Source of the DNA: Planctomycetaceae bacterium
GTDB taxonomy: Bacteria; Planctomycetota; Planctomycetia; Pirellulales; Pirellulaceae
Direction of reading: 5' to 3'
Assembly (NCBI GenBank): GCA_005778405.1
Contig: SXOA01000150.1
Location: 1 to 64,000 of the forward strand
Length of the DNA stretch: 64,000 nt
Position 1 is the stretch's first letter, and the number at the start of each line of letters is the position of its first letter. Below, one piece after another: positions 3,886 to 35,172 of the stretch. A program made the position numbers and the translations under genes. The notes under the pieces are model-generated. The model was given only the letters and a program-made list of their open reading frames with translations, made no database searches and had not been told where the DNA came from.

Positions 3886-3959
3886 CGGCGTGTGGGAGAA
3901 ATGGGAAGTCCACGTGCTTTGGGAGCACGAAGATGCTGGTTCGAACCCAGCCGCGCCGA
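3886..3959 (+). tRNA. tRNA-Pro (anticodon TGG)
   Basis: Acceptor cggcgtg/cgcgccg, anticodon arm cgtgc-TTTGGGA-gcacg, T-arm gctgGTTCGAACccagc. It resembles the canonical bacterial Pro(UGG) sequence. Confidence 0.7.
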
Positions 3960-3964
3960 CCTTT

Positions 3965-4038
3965 TGTGGTGCCTCCGTGCTGGTACGGTGGAGCGGCTGT
4001 TAACCGCTTCTACGCAGGTTCGATTCCTGCCGCCACAG
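3965..4038 (+). tRNA. tRNA-Asn (anticodon GTT)
   Basis: U1-A72 start as in E. coli tRNA-Asn. Anticodon arm agcgg-CTGTTAA-ccgct, T-arm gcagGTTCGATTcctgc. Confidence 0.6.
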
Positions 4039-4041
4039 CTT

Positions 4042-4127
4042 GGAAGTCAACCGGCTGGATGAGGAGCCTGTCTCGAAAACAGGTGGCGGCACTTCGCCGC
4101 TTGCGAGTTCGAGTCTCGCGGCTTCCG
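4042..4127 (+). tRNA. tRNA-Ser (anticodon CGA) with a long variable arm
   Basis: Anticodon arm cctgt-CTCGAAA-acagg, long variable stem-loop ggcggcacttcgccgc, T-arm gcgaGTTCGAGTctcgc. 86 nt long. Confidence 0.7.
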
Positions 4128-7070: not shown

Positions 7071-7724
7071 ATGACGATTCACGAAAATTTGGCGCGAATC
7101 AAATTGCCTGCGGAGCCGGCGCTGGTCGCGGCGGCAGTGGGGGGTGATCGCGTTGCCCTGGAGCGTCTGCTCCTCGCCCACTACGACCCCTTGGCGCGCC
7201 GGATCGGGGAAAAGCTGCCACCTCGGTTGCGGGCGACGCTGGCCGCCGAAGACATCTTGCAACTCACGTTCCTTCAGGCCTTCCGCGACATCGGGCAATT
7301 CGAGCTGCGGGCGGATGCGACCTTTGGCAATTGGCTGGCGCGGATTGCCGAAAACCGCTTGCACGACGCCATCAAGGCGCACGACTGCACGAAGCACGGC
7401 GGAGATTTGCAAAGAGTCCAGGACGGCGCGGGAAGCGACGGTAGCGTTCTGTCGCTCTGGGACTGGATTGCCGCTGCCGACACTTCACCCGGCAGTATTG
7501 TGGCGCGGGAAGAAGCGCTGCAAGCTTTGCAGGTCGCTTTGGCTTCGCTGCCCAGCGACCAGGGCATGGCGATTCGACTGCAAGTGCTCGAGGGAAAATC
7601 GCTGGCGGAAACTGCCACGGCATTGGGCCGGACTTCCGACGCAATTCGCGGGCTCGTGCATCGCGGCAAAGAGCAACTGCTGGCCGCCATGGGGCGAGCG
7701 TCCAAATGGCTGAAGTCCCAATGA
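7071..7724 (+). CDS. ECF-type RNA polymerase sigma-70 family factor
   Basis: 217 aa with sigma-70 region 2 and region 4 (helix-turn-helix) features. Its stop overlaps the start of the downstream kinase. Confidence 0.7.
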   Translation: MTIHENLARIKLPAEPALVAAAVGGDRVALERLLLAHYDPLARRIGEKLPPRLRATLAAEDILQLTFLQAFRDIGQFELRADATFGNWLARIAENRLHDAIKAHDCTKHGGDLQRVQDGAGSDGSVLSLWDWIAAADTSPGSIVAREEALQALQVALASLPSDQGMAIRLQVLEGKSLAETATALGRTSDAIRGLVHRGKEQLLAAMGRASKWLKSQ

Positions 7725-7731
7725 AACTGCC

Positions 7732-10203
7732 ATGAACGACACACTGCGGAACCTTACCGAAGTCGACCGCGACGCGCAGATATTTCGCGTCGTGGATGAG
7801 GCGCTACAGCGGCGAGCGGGAGGGGAGGAGATTACCGACGACGATCTTTGCCGGGAACATCCCAACCTGCTGCCGGAACTGGCCGCGGAGCTGCGCAAGG
7901 TGCGAGTCATCGCGCGAGCGCGTGAGCAATCCAGACAGCCGGCTGCGGACCGACGCGACCCCGCGAGCGATGAAACGGCTGCTTTCTTACCGATGCGGCC
8001 GCAAGTGCCCCGCCTGTCACGCTCGCTGGATATTCGTTGCCCTCTGTGCCGCGAGCCGCTGGAGATCGCCGCTGATCAGCCGCTGGAGGACATTCCCTGC
8101 CTGTCATGCCACGGCCGGTTCAGCCTGGCCGGTGACGATCCGGGCCTGAAGGATCAACAGCCCGTCACTCGGATCGCCCATTTCGAGTTGCTACAACGGC
8201 TGGGAATGGGGAGCTTCGGCACCGTGTGGAAAGCCCACGATGTGAAACTCGACCGCACGATCGCCCTGAAGATTCCCCGCCGCGGGCATTTGAGCTCCAG
8301 TCAAGTGGAGAAGTTCTTGCATGAAGCCCGCGTCGCCGCGAAGCTGCGGCATCCACACATCGTCAGCGTCCACGAGATTGGCCGCGACGACGACAGCATC
8401 TACATTGTCAGCGACCTCGTGGAAGGGGTCTCGCTGGAAAAATTCAAGGACGCGAAACGGCTGACGCAGCGAGAAGCGGCCCAGTTGCTCGTCACCGTGT
8501 GTGACGCGCTGCACTTCGCCCATCAGGCGGGAATCGTGCATCGTGACCTCAAGCCGGGCAACATCCTGATCGACGCCCAAGGAGTGCCGCACATCACCGA
8601 CTTTGGCCTGGCCAAGCGCGGGAACGAGGAAGTCGAGATCACGATGCAGGGAGAGATCCTGGGGACGCCGGCGTACATGTCGCCGGAACAGGCCCGCGGC
8701 GAGTCGCACCTGGCTGACCGCCGCACCGACGTTTATGCGATGGGAGTCATGTTCTTCGAGCTCCTTACCGATTGTCTTCCCTTCCGCGGCAACGTGCCGG
8801 CCCTCACGCAGCACGCGATCCACACCGAGCCGCCCAGTCCGCGCCGGCTCAATGCGACCATTTCGCGCGATCTGGAAACCATCTGCCTGAAATGCCTGGA
8901 GAAGGATCCCGTGCGCCGTTACGAATCGGCCGATGACCTGGCTGCCGAACTGCGCCGTTTTCTGGCCGGGGACGAAATCCGAGCGCGGCCGATTTCGCGG
9001 AGCGAACGCCTCTGGCGCTGGTGCCGGAAGAACCCACGGATTCCCACGCTCTCCGCGGCGCTGCTCGGCGTCGTGCTGATTGCCTATGCCGGCGCCTGGG
9101 TCTGGTTTGAGGCCCACATCGACCGCACGCGGCAGAGGCTCCAGGAACAGGCCCACGAGAACCTTCAGTTCACAGGTGGGGCGATTACCACAGCCGCCGG
9201 GCACGACTTCGACAAGTATTTTCAGCAGGTTAAGGACGCGGCTCGCGATCCCGTTCTGGCCAAACAACTGCGGGAGATGCAAGTGGTTCAGCAGAAATAT
9301 GCGCCGCTCAACGCGGTCGTCAAAAACGGGCCGCTTCAGGCGGAATTGCTCGACGAAAAGCTCCGGCAGCCGCTCAAGAAGTGGACCGAGAGCTTGCCGC
9401 GGGGGCAGTCAGTGTTCTCCTGGTTTGTCATGCAACCGGACGGGTTGCAGGTCGCGCGATATCCAGAGGTGTCGGGAGGCGAGAATACCATCGGCGAGAA
9501 CTATTCGTGGCGAGCCTATTTTCATGGCGGCCCGGAAGACAAACCGCTCGATTGGCGGGCCATTCCTGGACAGCATCTGACCGGGACCCAATTGTCGCCA
9601 CCCTTCTTTACTCATCACACTTTTGAATGGGTCTTGGTCGTCTCGACCCCAATCCCCGATCCGCAAGCCTCGGACGCCCCGGCACTCGGGGTCCTGGGAC
9701 TCATGCTGAAGCTGGGGTCGTTCGTGGAACTGCCCGGCAACGCGCCTCATGTCTCGCGGACCGAGGATACCGCCGGCGCTGAAAGCCGCTTTGCCGTGCT
9801 GATCGATTCGCGTCCCGCTCACCAGGGGAAAATCCTCCAGCATCCTCGGTACAGCGATCTAGAGAGTGATCAAGCTGCTCGTAGAAAGCTGCTCGACAGC
9901 TCGCTTGAGCCGGCGTTGCGAGTGCAGGGAGACTGGACCTGGCAGGACGACTACCTCGATCCCCTGGAGGAGCAACATTCCGGCGCGGACCCGCAGCAAT
10001 GGCTGGCCAGCCGTTTGCCAGTGAAAATCAGCGGGACCGACAGCGGCCTGGATGTCATCGTTCAGGAAAGCTACGACCAGACGATCAAGCAACCCCTGGC
10101 CGAGCTACGCCGCGGCCTGATTCTCCTGAGCTTGATCACGTTTGGACTCGCCGCGGTCGTGATCGTACCGCTGTGGGGGATCATTCTGCGATTAGTGCGA
10201 TGA
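7732..10203 (+). CDS. serine/threonine protein kinase with a C-terminal TM anchor and a large extracytoplasmic domain (ECF-sigma-associated)
   Basis: Hanks kinase motifs HRDLKPGNILID, DFGLAK and GTPAYMSPE. Hydrophobic segments near residue ~430 and at the C-terminus. Confidence 0.8.
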   Translation: MNDTLRNLTEVDRDAQIFRVVDEALQRRAGGEEITDDDLCREHPNLLPELAAELRKVRVIARAREQSRQPAADRRDPASDETAAFLPMRPQVPRLSRSLDIRCPLCREPLEIAADQPLEDIPCLSCHGRFSLAGDDPGLKDQQPVTRIAHFELLQRLGMGSFGTVWKAHDVKLDRTIALKIPRRGHLSSSQVEKFLHEARVAAKLRHPHIVSVHEIGRDDDSIYIVSDLVEGVSLEKFKDAKRLTQREAAQLLVTVCDALHFAHQAGIVHRDLKPGNILIDAQGVPHITDFGLAKRGNEEVEITMQGEILGTPAYMSPEQARGESHLADRRTDVYAMGVMFFELLTDCLPFRGNVPALTQHAIHTEPPSPRRLNATISRDLETICLKCLEKDPVRRYESADDLAAELRRFLAGDEIRARPISRSERLWRWCRKNPRIPTLSAALLGVVLIAYAGAWVWFEAHIDRTRQRLQEQAHENLQFTGGAITTAAGHDFDKYFQQVKDAARDPVLAKQLREMQVVQQKYAPLNAVVKNGPLQAELLDEKLRQPLKKWTESLPRGQSVFSWFVMQPDGLQVARYPEVSGGENTIGENYSWRAYFHGGPEDKPLDWRAIPGQHLTGTQLSPPFFTHHTFEWVLVVSTPIPDPQASDAPALGVLGLMLKLGSFVELPGNAPHVSRTEDTAGAESRFAVLIDSRPAHQGKILQHPRYSDLESDQAARRKLLDSSLEPALRVQGDWTWQDDYLDPLEEQHSGADPQQWLASRLPVKISGTDSGLDVIVQESYDQTIKQPLAELRRGLILLSLITFGLAAVVIVPLWGIILRLVR

Positions 10204-31142: not shown

Positions 31143-32498
31143 TCAGGGCCGCGCGGCCGGCAGTGATTCGTCTATTGGCGACCTTCCCCAAAAGAGCAGG
31201 GCCACGCAGCCGACCAGCGGGACCATGCCGGCGAAGAACAGGGCTGAGCCATAGCTGCCGGTCGCTTTGACGGTGTTCCCAACCCATTCCTGCATATAGG
31301 ACGACGCAATCCAGGTGATGCAGCCGAGTGCGCCGGTTACCAGGCCCTGATGTTTTTTGGAAATCTCCTGCGTGAGGGAATAGAACGGAGGAAAGAGCCC
31401 CAGCGACCCGAATCCAATCACGAGAAAGCTGCCGAGGAGCAGCCAGCCCTTCGGCAGTGAGCCGGCAAACATGCTCGCCATCGTCAGTAAGGCGCAAACC
31501 ACGAACGCCAGGCTTCGAGCAGCGTGTGGCGACCAGCCGCGCTTTTGCGCCAGGTGTTTGGAAAGCATGCCAGCGGCAATGCAGCCGACGTCGGCCACCA
31601 GGAAGTACCCCGCCCGAAACCAAGGAATGAAATCTTCCTCATAGCCCCGTCGATCGAGAATGAGCGGCATCCAGGCACGGAAGAATTGCCAGGTCAGGTT
31701 AATCGGGATAACAATGGCCAGCAGCGCCAGGAAGCGGCGAATCGTCGCCATGCCGACCGCGGAATTCCAGTGGATGCGGGAAATCTGATCTGCGGTGCTC
31801 GTCTCCAGCCGCGAAGGCTGTTCCGGCTCGCGCTGCAAGTCTTTGTCGCGGATGAGCAGGAGCCACGGAATGATCCAAAGCATCCCGATGAACCCAATGG
31901 CCTGAAAGGCGAACCGCCAACTGCCGGTTTGCGACGATACGACAAAGTAGATGACAATGGGCGTGAGTACGGCGCCGACGGAAGCGCCACTTTGCAGCAG
32001 GCCATTGCCAAAAGTCCTGTCGCGGGCCGAGAGAATCCGCTGGGTGGTGATCAGGGCGCAGGGCCAGTGCCCCGCTTCGAAGAAGCCGAGCACGATACGG
32101 CAGGTGTAGAGCCCCAGGAAAGCCGTGCGCGAGTTGACGTATTTCGCCTGCGTGGCCAGCTCCGGATCGAGCAGCCAAGGGAAGTACCTGACCAGACTCT
32201 CGCCGAGGGAGTCTCCATAGGCAGTCGCAATGCCAGCGGACGACCATCCGATGAGCACCGCTGGATATAGCCAGCGAATGCTAACGCGGTCGGCTACCAT
32301 CCCAAGGACGATCGCTCCGAGGGCGAAGGCGAGGCCGAACCCCTTTTCCATCTGGCCGTAGTGCGTCTCGTCCAGGTCCAATTCGGTCAGAATGGGTTTA
32401 ATGGATTCGGCCAGCGTCTGCCGGTCCATGTACATCATCATCGTGGCCAGGAAGAGGAGGCCACAGATGGTCCATTTCCAGGCGGGGGGACGGTTCAT
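31143..32498 (-). CDS. MFS transporter
   Basis: 12 predicted TM helices and an MFS signature near the TM2-3 loop. The ORF's upstream extension is created by the REP sequence, so the start is taken at the internal Met. Confidence 0.7.
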   Translation of the reverse strand: MNRPPAWKWTICGLLFLATMMMYMDRQTLAESIKPILTELDLDETHYGQMEKGFGLAFALGAIVLGMVADRVSIRWLYPAVLIGWSSAGIATAYGDSLGESLVRYFPWLLDPELATQAKYVNSRTAFLGLYTCRIVLGFFEAGHWPCALITTQRILSARDRTFGNGLLQSGASVGAVLTPIVIYFVVSSQTGSWRFAFQAIGFIGMLWIIPWLLLIRDKDLQREPEQPSRLETSTADQISRIHWNSAVGMATIRRFLALLAIVIPINLTWQFFRAWMPLILDRRGYEEDFIPWFRAGYFLVADVGCIAAGMLSKHLAQKRGWSPHAARSLAFVVCALLTMASMFAGSLPKGWLLLGSFLVIGFGSLGLFPPFYSLTQEISKKHQGLVTGALGCITWIASSYMQEWVGNTVKATGSYGSALFFAGMVPLVGCVALLFWGRSPIDESLPAARP

Positions 32499-32500
32499 TG

Positions 32501-32546
32501 TCGTCTTTCGCTCCGCGAAAGACATGCCTTTCGCGAAGCGAAAGGC
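32501..32546. repeat. REP-like double hairpin (copy A: ctttcgc-tcc-gcgaaag ... ctttcgc-gaa-gcgaaag)
   Basis: Two adjacent 7-bp-stem palindromes. The same unit recurs at 33241 and 33812. Confidence 0.6.
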
Positions 32547-32576
32547 AACAATGGAGGGCGACAGGCAACCATCACT

Positions 32577-33269
32577 TTATTTTTCCAATCTTCGGTAATA
32601 GAACTCGCCGGTCTTCAGGCCAGCCTTCTGAGGGTTATCCGCAATATAGCTGCGCAAGTAGTCGTATTGTTCCGGGCTGCGAACGAGATGGTCGAACGGT
32701 TCCTGCTGCCAGAACTTTCCCTTCTCGGAAGTCAGTTGATTGATGCGAAATGCCGTGTAGTGGAGCCAAGAGTCGCATTGTTCCTTCATTGCTTCCGCGG
32801 TAGGAAAAGCGGCGAGAAGGTGAACATGATTGGGCATCACGACAAAATCACCCATGCGGTATCGCTGACCGTCGAAGTGCAAGAGGGAATCGGCCACAAT
32901 TCTCGCTAGAATCGCCCGCCTTAACAAACAGCGGCCGTGGCACGTGTCCAAAAACTCTTCACGGCAACGGCGGAAGACCTTCTGAAATTCCGTTCGGTCC
33001 TTCTCGGAGATCTCCTCGATCACGACTGACCAAGGGTTGTCGGAATGGTAGCCACGATGCTGCAGCCATTCCTTCTTCTGGCGGTCCCACCGCGCAATCA
33101 CCTCCCGAGGAATGGAATCCTCGGTTCGAAAGGTAATGAAAACTACTGAGCCTGCTTGTGACCAGTGAGGACGACAGTGCTCGTAGATGAGCAGCTCGCT
33201 TTTTGGATCGAAGAGTTCGCCGAGCATGAGTAGCCCATAGTCGTCTTTCGCTCCGCGAAAGACATGCAT
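32577..33269 (-). mobile_element. REP-associated tyrosine transposase (RAYT; IS200/IS605 TnpA-like HUH Y1 transposase)
   Basis: HUH motif VMPNHVHLL plus a downstream Tyr region (..YIADNP..). The gene is flanked on both sides by REP copies. Confidence 0.7.
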
Positions 33270-33285
33270 TTGGCGGTGCGAAGGG
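33241..33285. repeat. REP-like copy B (first hairpin intact, second degenerate)
   Basis: tcgtctttcgctccgcgaaagacatgc matches copy A exactly over 27 nt. Confidence 0.55.
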
Positions 33286-33295
33286 CACTTACCCG

Positions 33296-33754
33296 TCAGG
33301 CAATGAAAGTACCCGTTCTCACCACCTCTTGGAGCACGATTCCGTAAATATTCCAGTCCAGGTCCGTATAAGCACCAGCGTATTTCACGATGTCTTTCTC
33401 CAGATGAGGTTGCAGCAGGTCCAACGATAAAGCAGGAGCATAGAGTCGAATCGAAGTTGGAACAAACGTAACTTGGGCCTCATACTCGGCTTGTTCCCCG
33501 GTGAGTGTTCGGTCCTTGACCTTGTCGGCAAACACTTCCTTTCCTTTGGACACAACGGCTTCGCCAACGATCTTGCTTCCATACCGGAACAAGACGATTG
33601 AGCCCGGCGGCACATCCTTCACGGAATTCGCATTCCGCAAAAAATAAACTCCTCCTCGACCTCGCAGCGCAGTCAATAGCCAAGTGAGCAAACTGTCTTC
33701 GGATGGGAACTCTTCACGGCTGTGCGGAAAGACTCGGACTTGTAATGATGCCAT
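33296..33754 (-). CDS. hypothetical protein, possibly PUA-like (EVE/ASCH-type) fold
   Basis: 152-aa ORF with plausible codon usage and no clear motif. It sits between REP copies B and C. Confidence 0.35.
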   Translation of the reverse strand: MASLQVRVFPHSREEFPSEDSLLTWLLTALRGRGGVYFLRNANSVKDVPPGSIVLFRYGSKIVGEAVVSKGKEVFADKVKDRTLTGEQAEYEAQVTFVPTSIRLYAPALSLDLLQPHLEKDIVKYAGAYTDLDWNIYGIVLQEVVRTGTFIA

Positions 33755-33811
33755 TTCTCTTCTCCTTTAACTCGCTCATTGTATCTCTGGTTCAATCTAA
33801 ATTGAAGAACT

Positions 33812-33855
33812 TCTTTCGCTTCGCGAAAGAACGGCCTTTCGCGGAGCGAAAGGCG
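33812..33855. repeat. REP-like copy C (ctttcgc-ttc-gcgaaag ... ctttcgc-gga-gcgaaag)
   Basis: Same double-hairpin architecture as copy A. Confidence 0.55.
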
Positions 33856-33861
33856 ACACTG

Positions 33862-34617
33862 CTACTTCCACGACTTCCCGTCCCAAGCGAGGACTTTTTC
33901 CAGCAAGTTGATGACGTCGGCAGAGAGCGTGCGGAAGATGACTTCTCCCTTTTCGGCAGTGGCGTGCCGCGGGTCGCCGATGTGGCCTGGCTCGGTCCGG
34001 TCCTTGGTGATCCAGCCGCGGTGAGCGGGTTCAAACGCGCCGCCGAACTCGACCGGCTGGACTTTGCTGAGATCGCCGACCAGGTGCGGATTGATGCGGA
34101 GCATCATCGAGGTTTCCCATTCGCAGGCGTGCCCCATCTGCTGCTGTTTGATGCTTTTGTCCTGCTCGTGCGGCTTGCCGCCGAGGGTCCAGTAGGTGGT
34201 GGCGATGAGACAGAGGTCGCTCCGCTCGCGGTACTTCTGCCGGAGTTCGAAGACGGCTTGCTGCGACGGGACGATGTTGCCGCCGTGCCCATTCACCAGC
34301 ACAATCCGCGTGAAGTTGTGGAACAGGAAGTTCTCCACCATGTCCCGCAGCAGGTCGAGATAGACCCGCGGAGCGGCCGACATGGTGCCGGCGAAATCGA
34401 GATGATGCTCGGAATTCCCCAGCCACATCATGGGGGTGAAGAGAACCCGGTCTCCCACCTTCTCGCTGACCCGGCGGATGATTTCGCCGCAAAGCATGCT
34501 ATCGGTAAAGAGCGGCATGTGCCTTCCATGCTGTTCCAGGGCAGCGATGGGAATCACAATCGGCGTGCTCCTCGGCAGAGCGGCCACGTCGGTCCATTTG
34601 AGGTCGGTGAGTTTCAT
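33862..34617 (-). CDS. creatininase (creatinine amidohydrolase) family protein
   Basis: Conserved ..LEQHG.H.P..TD...VNGHGGN.. blocks. Confidence 0.75.
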   Translation of the reverse strand: MKLTDLKWTDVAALPRSTPIVIPIAALEQHGRHMPLFTDSMLCGEIIRRVSEKVGDRVLFTPMMWLGNSEHHLDFAGTMSAAPRVYLDLLRDMVENFLFHNFTRIVLVNGHGGNIVPSQQAVFELRQKYRERSDLCLIATTYWTLGGKPHEQDKSIKQQQMGHACEWETSMMLRINPHLVGDLSKVQPVEFGGAFEPAHRGWITKDRTEPGHIGDPRHATAEKGEVIFRTLSADVINLLEKVLAWDGKSWK

Positions 34618-34803: not shown

Positions 34804-35172
34804 ATGGTTGTCCTATCTCGCAAGAAAAACGAGTCGATTATCATCCACGACAACATCATTGTCACGGTGATCGAGATTCGTGGAGACAAAGTGCGGTTGG
34901 GGATTGAGCTTCCTCGGGAGGTGCCGATTCACCGCAAGGAAGTCTACGACGCCATTCGGAGAATCGAGGAGTCTCCGGCCGCACAAGCGCCGACGCAACC
35001 CCCAACCATCCAACCACACTTCCCAGTGCGGCAGCCGGACAAGCTCGATCGCTTAGCGTCGGCATTGCAATCCAGGCTGGCAGTTTCGGTTAATCGTGAA
35101 CTGGTGGTGCAGGCGATGACGGAGGCGGGGATCGAGCTGCCGAACTTGCCAGCGGCTTCACCGCTCCGCTAG
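34804..35172 (+). CDS. csrA: CsrA/RsmA-family carbon storage regulator homologue with a ~60-aa C-terminal extension
   Basis: [48 protein letters not shown] closely matches the CsrA fold consensus. 122 aa total. Confidence 0.7.

Follow-up and report, generated by a model that had tools for sequence, protein, structure and literature searches.

A probable REPtron in a Planctomycetaceae contig: a RAYT gene bracketed by inverted REP doublets

Background

Systems of repetitive extragenic palindromes (REPs) and REP-associated tyrosine transposases (RAYTs, also named TnpA-REP) are well described (PMC6006769, PMC5581495). The class 2 (TnpA-REP) proteins are recognised by the signature Y-x-x-x-N-P, in place of the Y-x-x-x-Q of IS200 (Quentin et al. 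2018, PMC6006769). The current work describes a locus of this kind in a 64-kb stretch of one contig from a Planctomycetaceae bacterium (assembly GCA_005778405.1, contig SXOA01000150.1, positions 1 to 64,000), which is called the window below. The locus is very probably a REPtron, that is, a single-copy domesticated HUH/Y1 transposase gene for single-stranded DNA (ssDNA), bracketed by its cognate REPs.

Two systems provide the closest points of reference. In the REPtron Sm of Stenotrophomonas maltophilia, which falls into Bertels group 3 and Quentin subclass 2.5, the REP is a 23-nt perfect palindrome in which GTAG precedes an 8-bp stem with a 3-nt loop (Corneloup et al. 2021, PMC8266576); cleavage depends on both loop and foot and tolerates no imperfection of the stem (PMC8266576). 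The second is the Escherichia coli TnpA-REP (structure 4er8), which acts with REPs of the bacterial interspersed mosaic element (BIME) type and belongs to Bertels group 2 and Quentin subclass 2.2.

Subclass 2.4 of Quentin et al. (Bertels group 4), reported from 'various phyla', carries the motifs NH[IFV]H, WQ and YIxNNP, and REPs are sometimes found within the tnpA-REP gene itself. These in-gene insertions, sited between HUH and Y, were called unique to that subclass (Quentin et al. 2018, PMC6006769). No planctomycete names were found in the text of that paper. In an earlier account, GTAG-tagged REPs are reported from Rhodopirellula baltica, Planctomyces limnophilus and P. brasiliensis (Di Nocera et al. 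2013, PMC3733652). The same paper describes several coexisting REP families in R. baltica, with a 'plethora of tyrosine transposase genes' and flanking repeats, and allows a GTMG variant of the REP tag (PMC3733652).

REP doublets at the transposase gene

A pattern scan of the whole window for CTTTCGC-N3-GCGAAAG without mismatches returned five hairpins, at 32505, 32528, 33245, 33813 and 33836, all of them confined to 32505-33852. By chance 0.03 would be expected, and five were reached in none of 100 shuffles. The hairpins are arranged in three copies of a unit of about 52 nt, as delimited by a repeat finder: doublet A (32496-32547), doublet B (33236-33287; 88% identical to A) and doublet C (33804-33855; 77% identical to A). 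An original prediction, made from the letters of the sequence, had described a 45-nt unit of two palindromes with 7-bp stems. The doublets are real, but the unit is longer and includes a GTCG foot and an A three bases upstream of it. The prediction of a shared run between A and B also holds, with the correction that it covers 28 nt (32500-32527 = 33240-33267) rather than 27 nt from 32501 and 33241. Copy C is, as had been proposed, a diverged third copy.

Doublet A is itself an imperfect palindrome of 58 nt, with 29-nt arms (32496-32524 and 32525-32553) that are 86% complementary; its two units, A1 and A2, form a REPIN-like long palindrome. Doublets A and C are mutually inverted over 49 nt with 86% complementarity. 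Folded as ssDNA, units and doublets are far more stable than shuffled controls, with -24.5 kcal/mol for doublet A (z = -6.95) and -9 to -10 kcal/mol for single units. A covariance model, R1, was built from an alignment of 81 REP units collected from related loci (alignment A1), and the window was scanned with filters off. It detected three intact units, one in each doublet (Table 1). In Rfam only sub-threshold miRNA-precursor models were matched, which are generic long hairpins.

Every gene of the locus lies on the minus strand, and in gene order the arrangement is creatininase-family gene, doublet C, 152-aa open reading frame (ORF), doublet B, transposase, doublet A and transporter of the major facilitator superfamily (MFS). 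The transposase was said to be flanked by three copies of the repeat; B and A do bracket it, while C stands beside an unrelated neighbouring gene.

Table 1. Coordinates of the REP units and genes at the locus (positions in the window; R1, covariance model; folds as ssDNA)
Feature	Position	Strand	Description
RAYT (TnpA-REP-like) HUH/Y1 transposase gene	33227..32577	-	216 aa; between doublets B and A
REP A1	32495..32525	+	Intact; foot GTCG at 32500-32503, stem 8-9 bp, loop TCC; R1 40.8 bits, E=1.4e-7; fold -9.1 kcal/mol, z=-5.25; distal unit downstream of the RAYT stop codon in gene orientation
REP A2	32524..32554	-	Degenerate inverted partner of A1; foot GTTG, loop TTC; R1 23.7 bits, E=0.0016
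REP B1	33235..33265	+	Intact; foot GTCG at 33240-33243, loop TCC; R1 40.0 bits, E=2.1e-7; ends 8 nt upstream of the RAYT start codon
REP B2	33266..33287	-	Strongly decayed partner of B1 (ATTTGGC.GGT.GCGAAGG, 3 mismatches), in register with doublet A; not picked up by R1 in the window scan
REP C1	33832..33862	-	Intact; foot GTCG, loop TCC; between creatininase gene and 152-aa ORF; R1 42.4 bits, E=5.9e-8, top match of the window; fold -10.1 kcal/mol
REP C2	33812..33833	+	Degenerate inverted partner of C1; loop TTC, foot not recognisable; R1 16.4 bits, E=0.088, model positions 10-31 only
Conserved hypothetical gene	33296..33754	-	152 aa; between doublets C and B
Creatininase-family gene	34617..33862	-	First in gene order, followed by doublet C; Pfam family
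MFS transporter gene	start near 32498	-	Last in gene order, after doublet A; Pfam family

The transposase

The predicted HVHLL motif of a HUH/Y1 transposase is present in the minus-strand gene between B and A. The ORF list of the window gives a product of 230 aa from an ATG at 33269, which falls inside doublet B. The true start is the ATG at 33227, with a product of 216 aa, since most listed homologues are 216 aa long and begin with MLGE... in a 26-sequence alignment. A protein search gave 2410 proteins at E <= 0.001 among the candidates scored, and the 216-aa length is that of most of the 120 best listed. The homologues of the alignment, some of them from metagenome-assembled genomes (MAGs) labelled Pirellulales and Isosphaerales, share 71-78% identity with the window protein. 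Residues H134, H136, W173, Y194 and N198 are invariant in the 26 homologues and P199 is at least 90% conserved.

The HUH motif is formed by H134-V-H136 within PNHVHLL and aligns with the HUH of 4er8. The putative catalytic tyrosine is Y194 in YIADNP, which has the Y-x-x-x-N-P form of class 2; some homologues read YIANNP. The protein has an extra insertion in its N-terminal half and ends shortly after the Y motif. The best sequence match in PDB is the E. coli TnpA-REP (4er8), with HUH, WQ and YIxxNPxKxG aligned at an identity of about 13-20%. When an AlphaFold (AF2) model was compared with PDB by Foldseek, 4er8_A also ranked first (probability 1.00; template modelling score 0.55 on the target), followed by IS200 and IS608 transposases, with the IS200 structure 2f4f third at probability 0.99. 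The modelled Y1 HUH fold thus appears closest to TnpA-REP, with moderate support.

REP structure and gene association across the family

Loci with homologues were fetched from species-representative genomes, nearly all of Planctomycetota, and 80 of them were surveyed (locus labels beginning with L refer to these and other fetched loci from other genomes). All perfect hairpins of at least 6 bp with a 3-nt loop were counted, whatever the loop sequence. Nearly every one of the 80 genes has such hairpins close by on both sides. Of the 259 hairpins no more than 250 bp from the gene, 223 have the loop TCC or its complement GGA. The density of TCC/GGA hairpins there is about 6 per kb, compared with 0.083 per kb more than 1 kb away, a difference of about 72-fold. 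They occur on both sides in 55 of the 80 loci, and many of the remaining loci are cut by a contig end. The canonical RAYT/REP arrangement that had been proposed for the window is borne out by the HUH and Y-x-x-x-N-P motifs, the best PDB match to 4er8, the best NCBIfam match to REP_Tyr_transpos and the inverted doublets on both sides, a pattern repeated, with co-varying stems, in most of the 80 loci.

The usual order in gene orientation is a TCC unit and then a GGA unit, the gene, and again a TCC unit and then a GGA unit. This order on both flanks means that each side carries an inverted pair with its feet outward. The layout of the single unit was derived from 227 loop-anchored units: a conserved A at -16, the foot G-T-C-G at -13 to -10, an 8-bp stem and the loop TCC. 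The REP so defined is 23 nt long, its GTCG foot lying 5' of a perfect 8-bp stem with a TCC loop, and is found mostly in REPIN-like inverted pairs. In the 227 units, which were not selected for the foot, the foot positions are each about 75% conserved.

The stems vary by lineage in at least 12 sequences, such as CTTTCGC, TGATCGC, CTTTTTC, CCTTCGC, TGCCCGC, GGCACAC and GAGTCAC. In alignment A1 the invariant or near-invariant columns are G-T-C-G, the loop-closing base pair and T-C-C. These 81 units were chosen to have a TCC loop and 6 or more perfect pairs, with a further restriction by hand to GTCG or GTGG feet, and the units of R1 passed the same pairing and loop selection; part of the conservation seen in the inner six pairs, the loop and the foot columns is therefore built in. 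Independent of this selection are the all-loop survey, the feet in unselected units, the variety of stems and the seventh pair. The last, a stem pair outside the selection (columns 11/27), is paired in 78 of the 81 units, 18 of which have changed on both sides.

The foot differs with the protein. Where the protein is at least 57% identical to that of the window, 141 of 157 units have the foot GTCG; at 56% identity or less the commonest foot is the canonical tag GTAG (39 of 70 units). The REP foot changes with the protein clade, the sister clade using GTAG, and the TCC loop is kept in both. Divergent paralogues within one MAG each have their own stem type (L063/L064 and L071).

The neighbours of the gene are not conserved among the 80 RAYT loci, and neither the creatininase gene nor the MFS gene of the window flanks the RAYT at any other of them.

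Several of the fetched loci show further arrangements. L009 has five tandem REPs at a 32-nt period (3919-4076), L061 has nine that recur every 99 nt, some 370-1170 bp downstream of the gene, and L054 has eight units downstream of the gene (7606-7971); these arrays resemble BIME-like clusters rather than simple doublets. In L042 (10177-10326) and L045 (5584-5700) a REP doublet lies inside the RAYT gene with the frame kept open, adding about 45 aa after about residue 55, upstream of HUH. Two contigs of a single MAG, D1_Bin_10 (L063 and L064), contain RAYT genes that are 100% identical in surroundings 92-99% identical, which may reflect a real recent duplication (IS-like behaviour) or two strains binned together. 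Planctomycete-type RAYTs of 70-74% identity, with matching REPs, were also found in two MAGs with proteobacterial labels, Rhizobacter sp. (L006) and Pseudomonadales (L013). These are probably mis-binned contigs; horizontal transfer is less likely.

Dispersal of the REP away from the gene

The original prediction had named a palindrome occurring nowhere else in the genome as speaking against it; across the family this does not apply, since the palindrome is found well beyond this locus. At least 120 metagenome contigs contain the exact 22-nt REP GTCGNCTTTCGCTCCGCGAAAG. When the 120 contigs listed were searched by tblastn with the RAYT, none had a homologue adjoining the REP; one of them has a distant homologue 4.5 kb away, and most have more than 1 kb on both sides of the REP. 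Two checks proposed with the original prediction, intergenic location and inverted pairing, were made on these contigs and both gave the expected picture. Outside stop-to-stop ORFs of at least 150 aa lie 101 of 163 units (62%), though such ORFs make up 83% of the contig DNA; the ORF model is crude, and many of the 'inside' units are within 100 nt of an overestimated 5' end of an ORF. Many of the matches are +/- pairs about 30-40 nt apart, that is, inverted doublets (for example L137).

Relatives show the same at closer range. In L003, L004, L008, L019 and L033, among others, units that share the local stem type are found at distances of 1-9 kb from the gene. By our count, the model has about 45 matches at more than 500 bp from the gene, eight of them in 20 kb of Novipirellula herctigrandis (L033). 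Since at least 120 contigs carry the exact 22-nt REP with no adjoining RAYT and most units are outside ORFs, it belongs to a dispersed, mainly extragenic REP/REPIN family, a statement made at the level of the family, as the source genome is represented by its 64-kb window.

Proposed mechanism

The enzymes of E. coli, S. maltophilia and Marinomonas serve as the model for a mechanism in which the protein would bind, cleave and mobilise the REPs. It may bind the REP hairpin strand-specifically when the DNA is single-stranded, reading the loop and the foot and recognising the stem only as a structure. The foot would direct cleavage next to the element, Tyr194 acting as the nucleophile and His134/His136 forming the metal site, and the cleaved strand would be joined elsewhere by strand transfer. 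The expected outcome is that REP doublets are maintained and spread through intergenic DNA. Strand-specific binding and foot-guided cleavage are suggested by the combination of a fixed loop, a fixed foot and a stem free in sequence while paired, as in S. maltophilia.

Alternative explanations

Several observations weigh against the interpretation of the locus as a REPtron. Doublet C flanks the neighbouring unrelated gene and not the transposase. In all three doublets an intact unit is paired with a degenerate inverted partner, a state that fits an old or inactive local REP population. No further REP was found outside the 1.4-kb locus in the 64 kb, either with up to 3 mismatches or by R1 with filters off, although about 3 would be expected from the density in the flanks of relatives. 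On the protein side, the proposed check against the Pfam family Y1_Tnp (PF01797) did give a match (E=5.5e-4), but its 20.5 bits are under the gathering score of 23. The best NCBIfam match, REP_Tyr_transpos (NF047646), has 51.5 bits (E=9.5e-14), below the cut-off of 80. The protein is a divergent relative rather than a member in the sense of the NCBIfam equivalog model. The AlphaFold model is only moderate (mean predicted local distance difference test score, pLDDT, 71.6), the Foldseek E-value for 4er8_A is 3.1e-3, and no member of this lineage has a known biochemical activity.

The strongest of the alternatives is that the hairpins are mainly host regulatory or structural elements, such as terminators, mRNA stabilisers or protein-binding sites, and that the enzyme no longer moves them and is kept for another function on ssDNA. 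High conservation of the protein, with its 71-78% identity among aligned homologues, would agree with this, as would the one decayed unit per doublet and the absence of another copy in the 64 kb; physiological roles of REPs are known from the literature, and Quentin et al. suggest other ssDNA-editing roles (PMC6006769). The hairpins, however, lack the T-run of an intrinsic terminator, and the foot, a part that terminators do not need, is conserved and changes in step with the protein clade. Identical 22-mers at many unrelated sites imply recent copying. This explanation is improbable as a replacement, and it overlaps with the REPtron interpretation rather than excluding it.

Somewhat less probable still is a composite unit of 1.37 kb, running from doublet C through the 152-aa gene, doublet B and the RAYT to doublet A, in which the REPINs captured a passenger gene that moved with the transposase. 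The block has 50-53% GC in surroundings of about 60%, and none of its neighbours recurs at the 80 other RAYT loci. Against this, the average RAYT gene lies 4.3 GC points under its flanks, and 56 of the 59 loci with long flanks (L003-L082) show the deficit, so the low GC of the block is not specific to this locus; RAYT GC correlates with host GC (r = 0.81), and the low value reflects a bias in base composition throughout the family and does not point to recent transfer here. The 152-aa gene also stands without an adjoining REP in the five other contexts for which DNA was at hand, where only weak hairpin-only R1 matches were seen, several hundred bases or more downstream, in L207.

The 152-aa ORF was considered separately as a possible component of the RAYT/REP system and was rejected, being missing from all 80 of the 80 RAYT loci, without adjoining REPs in those five contexts and without a family. 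Its product matched no Pfam, NCBIfam, PADLOC or PHROG family. It has 110 homologues, some labelled Terriglobia or Dormibacteraeota, outside Planctomycetota; a single homologue, of 248 aa, has a precomputed PF14338 annotation. The gene is a bystander, and doublet C represents a further REPIN, located in the adjacent intergenic gap. Elsewhere the gene is found beside variable or defence-like genes, including DUF559, a DUF87 ATPase, ThiF/JAB/YukD, HTH-Peptidase_M78 and an ASCH protein.

An autonomous insertion sequence of the IS200/IS605 type, with the hairpins as its own subterminal ends and gene and ends transposing together, is very unlikely. Membership of the same Y1 HUH superfamily (2f4f as third fold match and the weak Y1_Tnp match), the hairpins at both gene ends, the unconserved neighbourhood at the 80 loci and the two identical copies of L063/L064 would all be compatible with it. 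The original prediction had also named grouping with an ordinary IS200 TnpA as an observation that would speak against a RAYT; instead, the Y motif is the class 2 YIADNP and not Y-x-x-x-Q, no tnpB adjoins the gene in the ORF list, and the window holds a single gene copy. The protein has 216 aa with an insertion in its N-terminal half, compared with about 150 aa for a core-only enzyme. Hairpins without the gene are present in the 120 or more contigs, both flanks have the same inverted doublet in place of distinct left and right ends, and the GC of the gene tracks that of the host.

The least probable explanation, to be given almost no weight, is a TIRYT-type element (subclass 2.1), a Y1 protein with long terminal inverted repeats (TIRs) instead of REPs: the inverted, 86% complementary 49 nt of doublets A and C recall such repeats, but this complementarity arises because the REP units are themselves palindromic, the protein ends shortly after the Y motif at 216 aa with no C-terminal helix-turn-helix (HTH) domain, and the TIR consensus GGGG[AT][CG]A[CG] (PMC6006769) is absent from the locus sequence.

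Gene annotation and further observations in the window

The REPs have consequences for gene calling. The false start codons of the 230-aa and of a 40-aa ORF lie within or border REP B1, and the REP explains the false N-terminal extension of the transposase (230 aa called in place of 216 aa). One homologue, P0038, has the same kind of extension. The claim that the REPs create spurious N-terminal extensions is thus confirmed for the transposase, whose listed ATG at 33269 is in doublet B; for the MFS ORF, with its ATG at 32525 in doublet A, it is likely. The REP also explains small phantom ORFs that recur in planctomycete gene calls, with products such as MSFAERKTT... and FRGAKDD....

The 5' part of the REP, c-A-t-N-GTCG, places a CAT, which is ATG on the minus strand, at the edge of the element (32496-32498 and 33236-33238). 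In doublet A this ATG is likely the start codon of the MFS transporter, and in doublet B the same triplet heads the phantom 40-aa ORF. With a CAT at their edge, inserted REPs may give rise to new start codons or shift existing ones.

The only additional hit in the window is an exact 13-nt REP core (TTCGCTCCGCGAA, minus strand) at 8994-9006 inside an 823-aa ORF (7732..10203); by chance, about 0.002 occurrences of an exact 13-mer would be expected. Either the decay of an in-gene REP or coincidence may account for it. Because it lacks both a GTCG foot and a partner and falls within a long ORF, it was treated as a non-REP and was not counted as a further copy. Just past the creatininase gene there is a CsrA-family gene (34804-35172, plus strand; 122 aa) whose product is about 60 aa longer at the C-terminus than is usual for CsrA.

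Comparison with known systems

Like the S. maltophilia system, this locus has a REP-flanked gene and a 23-nt REP in which a 4-nt foot lies 5' of a perfect 8-bp stem with a 3-nt loop, and the two parts required for cleavage in that species, loop and foot, are those conserved here. The foot is GTCG instead of GTAG and the loop TCC instead of GCT. The protein, of 216 aa compared with a median of about 151, has the motifs NHVH/YIADNP where that of S. maltophilia has DH[LF]H/YI[VI]ANP. The host phylum is different as well.

The E. coli TnpA-REP is the best PDB match of the window protein in both sequence and fold. As in E. coli, the gene, present once in the window, is bracketed by inverted REP pairs, and REPs of the family are dispersed outside genes. 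The E. coli REPs, however, are imperfect and bulged with a strict GTAG, whereas the stems here are perfect and short and the loop is conserved.

Judged by the published motif description rather than by the authors' profiles, NHVH / WQ / YIA[DN]NP appears to fit best with subclass 2.4 of Quentin et al. The HUH and W motifs, the YIANNP of some homologues and the extra insertion in the N-terminal half are shared with it, as are the in-frame REP doublets within the genes of L042 and L045. The in-gene insertions here, however, are upstream of HUH, the Y motif is mostly YIADNP, and the REPs are short, not 'long' or with a 'double foot'.

The natural switch of the foot from GTAG to GTCG between two protein clades with the same TCC loop, in a family as large as this one, makes it a convenient system in which to look for the residues that read the tetranucleotide guide. 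The finding extends existing RAYT work and opens no new question. The families of Di Nocera et al. come from the same phylum and, compared by their text description rather than by consensus sequences, belong to the same superfamily of tagged stem-loops. On that description the GTCG foot is a variant of the GT[AG]G tag that is covered by GTMG. With GTAG-type REPs and RAYTs reported there, the arrangement has been known in planctomycetes since 2013, and the present locus adds a further ordinary example.

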